From positions 1-12,570 of the forward strand of contig CBDDTI010000356.1 of NCBI GenBank assembly GCA_965233585.1: a DNA stretch of 12,570 bases, written 5' to 3'. Every line of letters starts with the position of its first letter. Positions within the stretch are counted from its first letter, which is position 1. Source of the stretch: a bacterium (lineage in GTDB: Bacteria > SAR324 > NAC60-12). Below the pieces are notes generated by a model, which ran no database searches, was not told where the DNA came from, and saw only the letters and a program-made list of their open reading frames with translations. The position numbers were made by a program, and so were the translations under genes. Of the stretch, positions 1 through 1,657 are shown in pieces.

Positions 1-156
1 TAGCAACCATTCAAATTTTCATATTTAACTGCCAGCGTTCCAATTGCAACAGTTCAATCGTTAAAATTGCCTGATTAGTGTGGTCCTTGTACCATACGAA
101 ACAGTTCTGTAGCAATAAAACGATGATTACTCGTGAAACCTGAACTTCTGTGAAGT
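1..156 (+). mobile_element. 3' end (UTR/pseudo-LTR) of a Penelope-like element, related to the element at 1183-1657
   Basis: Shares ordered blocks with the reverse complement of 1183-1345 (TAGCAAC, TCAATCGTT, hammerhead, AATAAAAyGATGA) and ends directly in (TA)15. Confidence 0.75.
66..116 (+). ncRNA. Type I hammerhead ribozyme, core variant CUGAUUA (G8U, probably inactive)
   Basis: ATTGC-CTGATTA-GTGTGGT[CCTTGT]ACCATAC-GAAA-CAGTTCTG-TA-GCAAT. Helix I is 5 bp, helix II is 7 bp, helix III is short, and the GUA triplet is at 109-111. Confidence 0.8.
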
Positions 157-186
157 TATATATATATATATATATATATATATATA
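157..186. repeat. (TA)15 microsatellite between two tail-to-tail PLE ends
   Basis: Read directly from the sequence. Confidence 0.97.
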
Positions 187-239
187 GATTGGTATAATAA
201 AACGACGAAGAGACAAACTCTTGACAGTTCCAGCGTTTA

Positions 240-272
240 ATCGACGTTTCGGCCTTCGGCCTTCTTCAGGAT
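240..272 (-). ncRNA. Minimal type I hammerhead ribozyme with palindromic helix III
   Basis: Minus strand reads ATC-CTGAAGA-A-GGCC[GAA]GGCC-GAAA-CG-TC-GAT. The core is intact, the GUC triplet is at + 245-243, and an ACGU palindrome replaces the helix III hairpin. Confidence 0.8.
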
Positions 273-790
273 AGTTTAAAAGTTAAAAATTAAAAAAGCT
301 ATATACAATGGTTGTGAGTGGCAGAGTTACGGGCTTTTATATAGTACACAGAAAATGGAAATTAAGGTTACGTAACAAAAGAAAAGGTCTTAATTACAAG
401 CTAGGCAAAACAAAAAACAATTGATAAAAAGGAACAAACAGACTAATCAGATAAATCGTGTTATTACGTAACAAACTCCCCATTGAGGGCCTCTGAATGA
501 ATGTGCGGGTCAATGTCATAACAAGGTCCTCAGAGAGGGCCCCTAAACAATGTAATAGATTCCCAATCGAAAGTCCCTGAATGAAAAACCAAACACAAAC
601 ATAACAGAATCCCCCAATAGAGTTTTTGAACAAAAACAACAACGACTAAGTGAAGGCTAACAAAACAAAAGGGCAAGATTACAAACTAGAAACAAAGCTA
701 GATGGGAGCCAACGAGGTCCTACATACAGCAAAAATTACGATGATTACAAATTTGGGCTGAAAAGAATTTACACTACAATAGAGACAAAG

Positions 791-1153
791 TCAACTGTTG
801 TAGCAGATACGATTTCTGGATTTGAATTCACGCCTTTTGTTAAGACCGTGTGGATATAATGAAAAGAGTTGTGAGGTCCAATATGCTTCTCTGGTGAGGA
901 GCAGTTGTTCAAGATGGATTGCATTTTTGTGGTTTATAATTTGTTCAATAATAATAAAACTAATTTGACAAATTTGATGCTCAAAAGAATTATAATGGAC
1001 CGCCAACTCACATGTTCTTCTGTTCTTAAGCATTGATGATTTATGGTTACGAAAACGAACCTTGAATTCTGTTGAAGTGGAGCCCACGTACTGCTTTTTG
1101 CATTTGTTACAAGCAGCCAAATAAATGACATTTTTGGAAGTACAGCTTAATTT
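791..1153 (-). CDS. PLE GIY-YIG endonuclease domain (C-terminal fragment of the polyprotein, no start codon)
   Basis: The frame extends upstream of the ORF call: KLSCTSKNVIYLAACNKCKKQYVGST...RFRNHKS...LAVHY...REAYW...HGLN. This gives VIY/YVG with an intervening CxxC plus the conserved R, H, E and N residues. Confidence 0.88.
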   Translation of the reverse strand, partial: KLSCTSKNVIYLAACNKCKKQYVGSTSTEFKVRFRNHKSSMLKNRRTCELAVHYNSFEHQICQISFIIIEQIINHKNAIHLEQLLLTREAYWTSQLFSLYPHGLNKRREFKSRNRICYNS

Positions 1154-1154
1154 C

Positions 1155-1182
1155 TATATATATATATATATATGTATATATA
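1155..1182. repeat. (TA)n microsatellite with one TG interruption, at the junction of two PLEs
   Basis: Read directly from the sequence. Confidence 0.95.
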
Positions 1183-1226
1183 ATTAAAACAAACTGGTTC
1201 AAGACTTCAGAGGTAGTTCATCATTT

Positions 1227-1283
1227 TATTACTACAGCTCTGTTTCGTATGGTCAAAAATATGACCACACTCATCAGGTAATA
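1227..1283 (-). ncRNA. Type I hammerhead ribozyme, intact core
   Basis: Minus strand reads TATTAC-CTGATGA-GTGTGGTCA[TATTTT]TGACCATAC-GAAA-CAGAGCTG-TA-GTAATA. Helix I is 6 bp and helix II is 9 bp (one G-U). Predicted cut is between + 1233 and 1232. Confidence 0.9.
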
Positions 1284-1411
1284 TGAACGATTGACCGTTG
1301 AGTTACAATAACTGGCTATAAAAGCGGGAATATAGTTGCTATGATATATAAAAACAACGTTGTTTTCTCATATAAATCATGTGGTTGCTATATACAATTT
1401 GGGGGATTGTG

Positions 1412-1657
1412 TTACCTTTTTATGAAGTTCTTAAGGAGGTATCTGTTTCGATGGGGGCATGAACTTGCCAACTCATTTCGCTTGTTTAGACTGCAGAGTT
1501 CCTTTTTACAGATGATCACGAATTTTTCAACAAGACATAAATTACACTTCTTAGTAATGTTGCTGTACGGTTTGCATTGTTTGATGATTTTCCACGTTAG
1601 GTTGAAAGGTTTGTTGTTGTCCTTGAGTGTCCATATGTGCTTTGACAATTCAGTCAC
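1412..1657 (-). CDS. C-terminal part of a PLE GIY-YIG-type endonuclease region (fragment)
   Basis: TELSKHIWTLK...W.II....Y......CNLCLVEK..I......LNKRNEL...CPH is a pattern I recognise from PLE C-termini; a hammerhead-bearing UTR follows. Confidence 0.75.
   Translation of the reverse strand: MTELSKHIWTLKDNNKPFNLTWKIIKQCKPYSNITKKCNLCLVEKFVIICKKELCSLNKRNELASSCPHRNRYLLKNFIKR

Follow-up and report, generated by a model that had tools for sequence, protein, structure and literature searches.

We analyzed a window of 12,570 nucleotides, the whole of contig CBDDTI010000356.1 (C356) of the NCBI GenBank assembly GCA_965233585.1, whose first 1,657 nucleotides consist of the 3' ends of three Penelope-like elements (PLEs), here called e1, e2 and e3, parted by two TA tracts (Table 1). 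The elements e1 and e2 lie tail-to-tail with both of their 3' ends abutting the (TA)15 tract, and e2 and e3 lie head-to-tail, since the truncated 5' end of e2 (position 1154) and the 3' end of e3 adjoin the second tract. A sequence-only reading of the window had proposed this arrangement, and its coordinates and orientations matched both the sequence and the output of Tandem Repeats Finder (TRF), with which repeats were detected; relatives were collected by BLAST against the same assembly, and domains were searched with Pfam. Because close copies of e2 and e3 run on upstream of the points at which the window copies stop, both are 5'-truncated. In the BLAST comparisons, e1 and e3 were alike (~80% identity) over just 77 nt around the hammerhead motif and therefore represent different families, and the sequence of e2 was unrelated to either of them.

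Table 1 Features of the three PLE 3' ends and their TA tracts (window 1-1657).
Feature	Position	Strand	Description
e1	1-156	+	Last 156 nt (3' untranslated region, UTR) of a Hydra-type PLE; 5' side cut by the contig start
(TA)15	157-186		3' flank common to e1 and e2; TRF, 15 copies, 100% matches
e2	187-1154	-	968-nt 5'-truncated Neptune-like PLE: remainder of the endonuclease-coding sequence and ~600-nt 3' UTR
28-nt TA tract, (TA)9 TG (TA)4	1155-1182		TRF, 14 copies, 92% matches; composition read from the sequence
e3	1183-1657	-	475-nt 5'-truncated Hydra-type PLE; 5' end joins a 536-bp tandem repeat
e2 endonuclease frame	791-1153	-	120 amino acids (aa) and stop; GIY-YIG core, CCHH motif
e3 endonuclease C-terminus	1412-1657	-	81 aa and stop; CxxC (CNLC), CxH (CPH)
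e1 hammerhead-like motif	71-111	+	CTGATTA, core substitution; ends 45 nt before the element end
e2 minimal hammerhead	243-269 (269->243)	-	Descriptor match; ends 56 nt before the element end
e3 type I hammerhead	1233-1277 (1277->1233)	-	Descriptor match; ends 50 nt before the element end

The e2 frame matches the GIY-YIG domain of Pfam (PF01541; E = 3.9e-7, 30.7 bits with a cut-off of 22.6). The element is 99.6% identical over 968 nt to C136:6355-7322, where the frame extends further upstream, and 100% identical over 168 nt to C61:8-175, and its frame is 76% identical to the C-terminus of a 655-aa frame on C536. In the longer copies, a cysteine-rich linker lies upstream of the GIY-YIG domain, reading GCCKCNKRCDLC in C136 and GCFKCDKNRCDLC in C536, with the spacings C-x-C-x3-C-xx-C and C-x2-C-x4-C-xx-C, respectively; the window copy is truncated just downstream of this zinc-finger linker. 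A CCHH motif is found within the GIY-YIG core of the window frame (VIYLAACNKCKKQYVGSTSTEFKVRFRNHKS...CELAVHYN), and DKG is present in the C536 relative. The C536 frame shares 34% identity across 650 aa (E = 2e-116) with a C61 frame in which Pfam recognizes RVT_1 (E = 1.3e-7) together with GIY-YIG; RVT_1 gave no match at E <= 0.01 with the C136, C536 and e3-family frames. A zinc-finger-like linker is described for both the Neptune and the Nematis clades by Craig et al. 2021 (PMC8557442; Arkhipova 2006, as cited there). Judged by its motifs, that is, the linker, CCHH and DKG, e2 belongs to a Neptune/Nematis-type family, and these motifs are common to the two clades and do not separate them.

The second family with coding sequence in the window is that of e3, which is 98.7%, 97.7% and 98.2% identical to copies on C3, C61 and C43, respectively, all of which extend upstream past base 1654. 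The e3 frame is identical at 79 of 80 positions to residues 434-513 of a 513-aa PLE frame on C61. This whole frame gave a weak Pfam match to GIY-YIG (E = 3.3e-4; 21.3 bits, under the 22.6-bit cut-off), and the 81-aa window fragment gave no Pfam match. According to PMC8557442, the Hydra clade is marked by the lack of CCHH, a CxCX5C linker, DKT in place of DKG, RWK, and CxxC and CxH motifs around a conserved E and N, and its hammerheads are readily detected. The features of the e3 family are as follows: First, its GIY-YIG core (...NVVYQATVKTETSTDSYVGLATNFKERYRNH...) is without the cysteine pair and hence has no CCHH. Second, the CxCX5C linker reads CNCRKKDQC in the C61 and C3 copies, in a part that the truncated window copy lacks. 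Third, an inverted e3-family copy on C3 has RWK and DKT in its N-terminal frame (RMRWKAFFF and FVKADKTTNHYK, the latter with KADKTT), which overlaps the C61 frame in ISKRILDNINN.IIKVTKVNLWK. At last, CxxC and CxH stand in the window frame itself (CNLCLVEK and LNKRNELASSCPH), in the contexts CNLC...EK and NKRNE...CPH. With every published signature found, the e3 family is a member of the Hydra clade as far as motifs define it. No coding sequence of e1 lies within the window, and its family was assigned through its relatives, to which it is 98.7% (C151:2420-2575) and 99.2% (C107:1-126) identical in BLAST searches of the assembly. The C151 copy runs upstream into an endonuclease frame ending ...KELCSLNRRNELASSCPHRNRYVLRNFRVT, also given as KELCSLNRRNELASSCPHRNRY; as this is a Hydra-type endonuclease C-terminus, e1 is Hydra-type too, and e1 and e3 are, on motif grounds, two different families of the Hydra clade.

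Most close copies of all three families end at TA, and the proposal that at least two PLE families use (TA)n is borne out. All three close copies of the e1 family end at TA, either directly or after a tail, as do two of the three close copies of the e2 family. In the e3 family, seven of the eight close copies end at TA-type repeats, four directly and three after an extension of 62-63 nt, and the eighth runs into an inverted PLE. We take this extension to be the PLE 'tail'. In vitro, a PLE protein was seen to cut and extend both strands of the DNA, and the tail is put down to a pair of RT (reverse transcriptase) start sites (PMC11167929), which by analogy the alternative 3' ends observed here would fit. 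At the 5' junctions of the C136 and C61 copies, a TA tract is succeeded by a short inverted stub (17 and 25 nt) and then by the sense copy, and these stubs would, again by analogy, fit the cutting and extension of both strands. No tail or inverted stub was found at e1, e2 and e3 themselves. The association extends to the assembly as a whole, where (TA)>=5 occurs within 200 nt downstream of 39 of the 164 sites that match a hammerhead descriptor (described below). The rate is lower on the upstream side (8 of 164) and at random sites (30 of 5000), and TA-associated members are present in 16 of the 57 hammerhead sequence clusters. Like the window, C61 and C151 carry series of truncated PLE ends that each run into TA. 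These observations parallel the published record, in which nearly every Hydra family inserts into (TA)n and the same bias is seen in Neptune and also in Naiad (PMC8557442).

Two side observations concern these contigs. C61 holds in its positions 1-11699 a larger pile-up than the window, with at least six hammerhead-bearing ends on the plus strand, each with a TA tract within ~120 nt, and between these ends lie two Neptune-like frames (816 and 569 aa) and an e3-family frame. On C136, ARAGORN reports a tRNA-Thr(GGT)-like sequence at 7483-7553 on the minus strand, ~110 nt past the extension of the e2-family copy, and on C135 a tRNA-like end adjoins a TA tract; such sequences may belong to a tRNA-derived short interspersed element (SINE) that uses the same TA sites.

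The sequence-only reading had also given each element its own hammerhead ribozyme, ending about 40-55 nt from the element end. The measured distances of 45 (e1), 50 (e3) and 56 nt (e2) agree with this estimate and are constant across the elements. The conserved core CUGANGA ... GAAA ... UH is present in e2 and e3 and violated in e1. The e3 motif comprises CUGAUGA, an 8-bp helix II, GAAA and a short helix III (ACAG AG CUGU), with A at the cleavage site. The e2 motif, only 27 nt as a whole, comprises CUGAAGA, an unpaired A, a 4-bp helix II (GGCC-GAA-GGCC), GAAA and CGU, with C at the cleavage site and a helix III that is the loopless palindrome ACGU. The e1 motif is of the e3 type except that it reads CUGAUUA, with T at base 76 in core position G8, where the other 13 of the 14 family copies in the alignment have G. 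Since mutation of G8 abolishes cleavage in a PLE hammerhead (PMC11167929), the mutated e1 copy is probably inactive, and the claim of one ribozyme per element stands, at the level of the motif, for the intact cores of e2 and e3 but not for e1. The further description of the locus as a ribozyme cluster carries no functional weight, as the copies are 5'-truncated, one core is mutated and the two intact motifs come from unrelated families.

Evidence for the motifs came from matching, folding and alignment. The descriptor, which required the core together with helix II of >=3 bp, helix III of >=2 bp and helix I of >=3 bp, matched 164 sites in the assembly compared with 10 in the reversed sequence. 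In the minimum-energy folds, helices I and II form in e3 (z = -4.22) and e1 (z = -3.06), and helix III is absent. In the alignment of the e1/e3 family, 92.9% of the cells are paired versus 22-51% with slid partners, and two of the 23 pairs change on both sides; the aligned copies are closely related, which limits what covariation can tell. The e2 motif recurs in C136 and C61, and in its C536 relative (70-75% identity), read by eye, helix II is GGCU/AGCC rather than GGCC/GGCC with changes on both sides, and the first pair of helix I is likewise kept through a double change. In cofolds, each of the three motifs gained stability as a dimer over two separate monomers, and the expected intermolecular helix III appeared in the dimer of e1 only. 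The dimer gain of e2 was dropped as support because it stems from a swapped helix II. Hammerheads in the terminal repeats of PLEs have already been published. In the minimal hammerhead ribozymes (min-HHRs) of metazoan PLEs, one base 5' of stem II is left unpaired and helix III is reduced to a small palindrome; these ribozymes are presumed to act as dimers and show low activity in vitro (PMC4209133). The intact e2 and e3 cores would be of this minimal or short-helix-III type, which suggests action as dimers.

Taken together, window 1-1657 is very probably a pile-up of three independent, dead, 5'-truncated PLE insertions in one TA microsatellite, with e1 and e3 from two Hydra families, e2 from a Neptune-like one, and the hammerheads as ordinary passengers. 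In the course of events that we propose, the GIY-YIG endonuclease of an element would nick AT-rich or (TA)n DNA, and the free DNA end would prime reverse transcription of the element RNA from near the RNA's 3' end, so that the 3' end of the element would come to adjoin TA. An early stop of copying would produce the 5' truncations, and the hammerhead motifs of the PLE terminal regions would be carried in with each copy. As for the order, e1 and e3 would have come first, tail-to-tail on one tract, and e2 would then have inserted between them. The sequence-only reading had e2 splitting a pre-existing tract, and this remains plausible: e2 has TA on either side and is the closest to its relatives (99.6-100% identity versus 97.7-99.2% for e1 and e3), but no empty-site allele was found.

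Several observations weigh against this interpretation or narrow its reach. First, no RT sequence lies inside window 1-1657, all three copies being truncated, and the clades were placed by motifs rather than with a tree of reference sequences. Second, the association with TA is incomplete. The e2-family copy on C136 ends in the extension and then non-TA sequence, and 125 of the 164 hammerhead matches have no TA tract within 200 nt downstream; TA targeting is therefore limited to some families, and the large clusters 0 (0/14), 2 (0/13), 5 and 6 (0/7 each) are TA-free. Third, the 5' end of e3 abuts the 536-bp repeat and not TA, so that e3 would have entered at the edge of the tract. Finally, three checks on the motifs came out negative or weak. 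Scans with the Rfam covariance models, which the sequence-only reading had put forward as a check, returned no hammerhead at the gathering score in the whole window or at E <= 10 in positions 1-1800; the monomer fold of e2 is without thermodynamic support (z = +1.10); and the covariation score of the e1/e3 family is weak, being equalled by 34 of 500 shuffles. The Rfam misses are a limit of the models and not evidence against the motifs. Elsewhere in the assembly, RF00163 (Hammerhead_1) finds 26 sites at E <= 1, seven of them over the cut-off.

The alternative that deserves most attention, although we consider it unlikely, is that the elements largely produce the TA tracts themselves, with the RT or junction repair adding or extending TA and true empty sites having little or no TA. 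An indirect test of it is offered by a host repeat with copies on C206, C135, C72, C715, C647, C639 and C624, which was the sole usable family in a flank search of 38 TA-associated insertions, the far flanks of most being other repeats. Five of its 11 copies are uninterrupted and hold a TA run of 7 nt, and the other six are interrupted by different sequences exactly at this run, with 28, 15, 29, 3, 62 and 16 nt of TA; the interrupter is a hammerhead-bearing PLE end in one of these six. Since the uninterrupted copies carry TA at the exact site, the site was TA before insertion, which supports targeting. The idea, raised at the outset as a possible refutation, that TA is an element-encoded tail at non-TA sites disagrees with these uninterrupted copies, whose site is not TA-free. 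The longer TA of the interrupted copies (15-62 nt in five of the six, 3 nt in the other) has two readings: TA may be added by the elements, or insertions may strike long alleles more frequently.

Two further observations can be read as element-made TA. All TA tracts examined lie against one or more element 3' ends, and these include the inverted stubs of the element's own 3' end that we found at the 5' junctions of truncated copies, 17 nt long on C136 (5212-5251) and 25 nt long on C61 (7227-7272). Also, the longer a tract, the more often a hammerhead is directed at it (48/497 at >=5 units, 29/150 at >=8 and 21/50 at >=12 units), but long tracts may simply be better targets. On the other side, the truncated 5' end of e2 adjoins TA just as the 3' ends do, TA in the tailed copies comes after the tail and not after a fixed element end, and (TA)n is described as the target in PMC8557442. 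A milder form of the idea, to which we give tentative and limited weight, is that PLE insertion lengthens existing TA tracts, for example through reiterative or slipped synthesis by the telomerase-related RT on a TA primer. Pile-ups such as those in the window, on C61 and on C151 would then be self-reinforcing landing pads, in which a short TA run would expand to microsatellite length and so draw in more PLEs.

Empty sites for the window locus itself were looked for in two places. Parts of 1-2200 occur in 19 of the 21 listed public runs (seven studies), but among the Logan contigs of four of the 21 runs, a comparison in which the repeats at 149-196 and 1144-1193 were skipped, neither TA tract is spanned by any of the pieces listed. 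At position 1654, the loose ends in the public runs lead into longer e3-type copies, and these contigs therefore derive from other copies and not from this locus. Within the assembly, the empty-site search was uninformative, as the right flank of e3 is the 536-bp repeat, of which only one further copy exists (C649).

We regard it as highly improbable that the pieces are non-autonomous hammerhead elements, such as animal retrozymes or SINE-like PLE derivatives, rather than truncated autonomous PLEs. Animal retrozymes do share type I hammerheads and a link to PLEs with the pieces: the non-long-terminal-repeat (non-LTR) retrozymes of animals, a subject of Cervera and De la Pena in 2020, are said to carry type I hammerheads and reportedly are non-autonomous PLE derivatives. 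The lack of e1 coding sequence in the window would agree with this, but the C151 relative of e1 extends into endonuclease-coding sequence, in other copies the endonuclease-coding sequences of e2 and e3 run on into full PLE frames, and there are no tandem short units in 1-1657.

A single complex insertion, in which template switching between RNAs produced all three pieces, is similarly hard to credit. PLE insertions are often complex and inverted (PMC8557442), and the in vitro cutting and extension of both strands by the PLE protein (PMC11167929) offers a possible route. However, priming on both strands gives outward 3' ends, as on C136 and C61, whereas the 3' ends of e1 and e2 face each other; moreover, three families are involved and TA tracts separate the pieces. 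The last alternative, that the hammerheads are chance matches to a loose consensus, has next to no credence despite the missing Rfam matches and the short e2 motif that folds poorly alone, because descriptor matches far outnumber the reversed control, the motif keeps a constant distance of 45-56 nt to the end of the element, diverged copies preserve the core and helices with pairs changing on both sides, and the architecture, down to the base left unpaired 5' of stem II, matches the published min-HHR (PMC4209133).

The assembly was scored as a prokaryote genome (92.5% complete), and the distribution of retroelements within it is uneven. Its five contigs of >=100 kb (2.9 Mb) contain six hammerhead matches and no (TA)>=8 tract, whereas the other 742 small contigs (9.1 Mb) contain 158 hammerhead matches, 138 (TA)>=8 tracts and many animal retroelements; the window is therefore animal DNA that was binned with a microbe. 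This matters to users of the bin, since animal DNA sits in an assembly handled as prokaryotic. The only uncoded label among the listed public runs is 'coral metagenome'.

The remainder of the window holds further repeats. Adjoining the truncated 5' end of e3, positions 1664-2573 are a tandem duplication of a 536-bp unit, whose copies are 97% identical over 300 nt (extended by BLAST to 374 nt) and which is again in tandem on C649; Pfam gave no match for the frames across this repeat, including 1702-2166. Positions 3225-4000 form a dispersed repeat of ~780 nt that recurs with 83-95% identity on at least 11 other contigs. The segment 5600-6395 opens with a 173-aa frame at 5600-6121 on the plus strand, which we take to resemble the C-terminal part of a non-LTR retrotransposon RT, and continues with (AT)18 at 6139-6174, four copies of a 26-bp repeat at 6173-6275 and (TAT)18 at 6342-6395. 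No hammerhead points at the TA tract of 6139-6174. A run of 25 C occupies 6801-6825.

The locus is a clean example of published PLE behaviour, with Hydra- and Neptune-type elements, hammerheads and nesting in TA microsatellites, and what it adds amounts to little beyond annotation: hammerheads in PLE ends, (TA)n targeting, tails and pile-ups are all published, and nothing in it is new. Two points may nevertheless be of use. The Rfam hammerhead models miss these minimal variants, and the natural G8-to-U change of e1, beside its intact relatives, could serve as a ready negative control in cleavage assays.

Compared with known systems, the e3 and e1 families do not differ in kind from the Hydra clade, with which they are alike in the endonuclease, the linker, DKT and RWK, CxxC and CxH, the 3' hammerhead and the (TA)n preference; the extension between the alternative 3' ends of some e3-family copies is longer (~62-63 nt) than the 30-40 bp of PLE tails. 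The e2 family has in common with Neptune/Nematis the CX2-5CxxC-type linker of its longer copies, CCHH in the core and DKG in C536, and with Neptune also a hammerhead in the 3' region and flanking TA microsatellites. The retrozymes, which are short non-coding tandem units, differ from the pieces in the window, which are truncated copies of coding PLEs and not tandem. With the min-HHR (Cervera and De la Pena 2014, PMC4209133), the window motifs share type I topology, terminal location in PLEs and an arrangement of opposite-strand motif pairs 100-700 bp apart, and e2 shares the unpaired base 5' of stem II; a helix III that is absent or very short and palindromic, as ACGU in e2, is also common to both. 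In contrast to the min-HHR, helix I is longer in e3 and e1 (5 + 6 bp) and their helix II has 8 bp, and the e1 copy has G8 changed to U.

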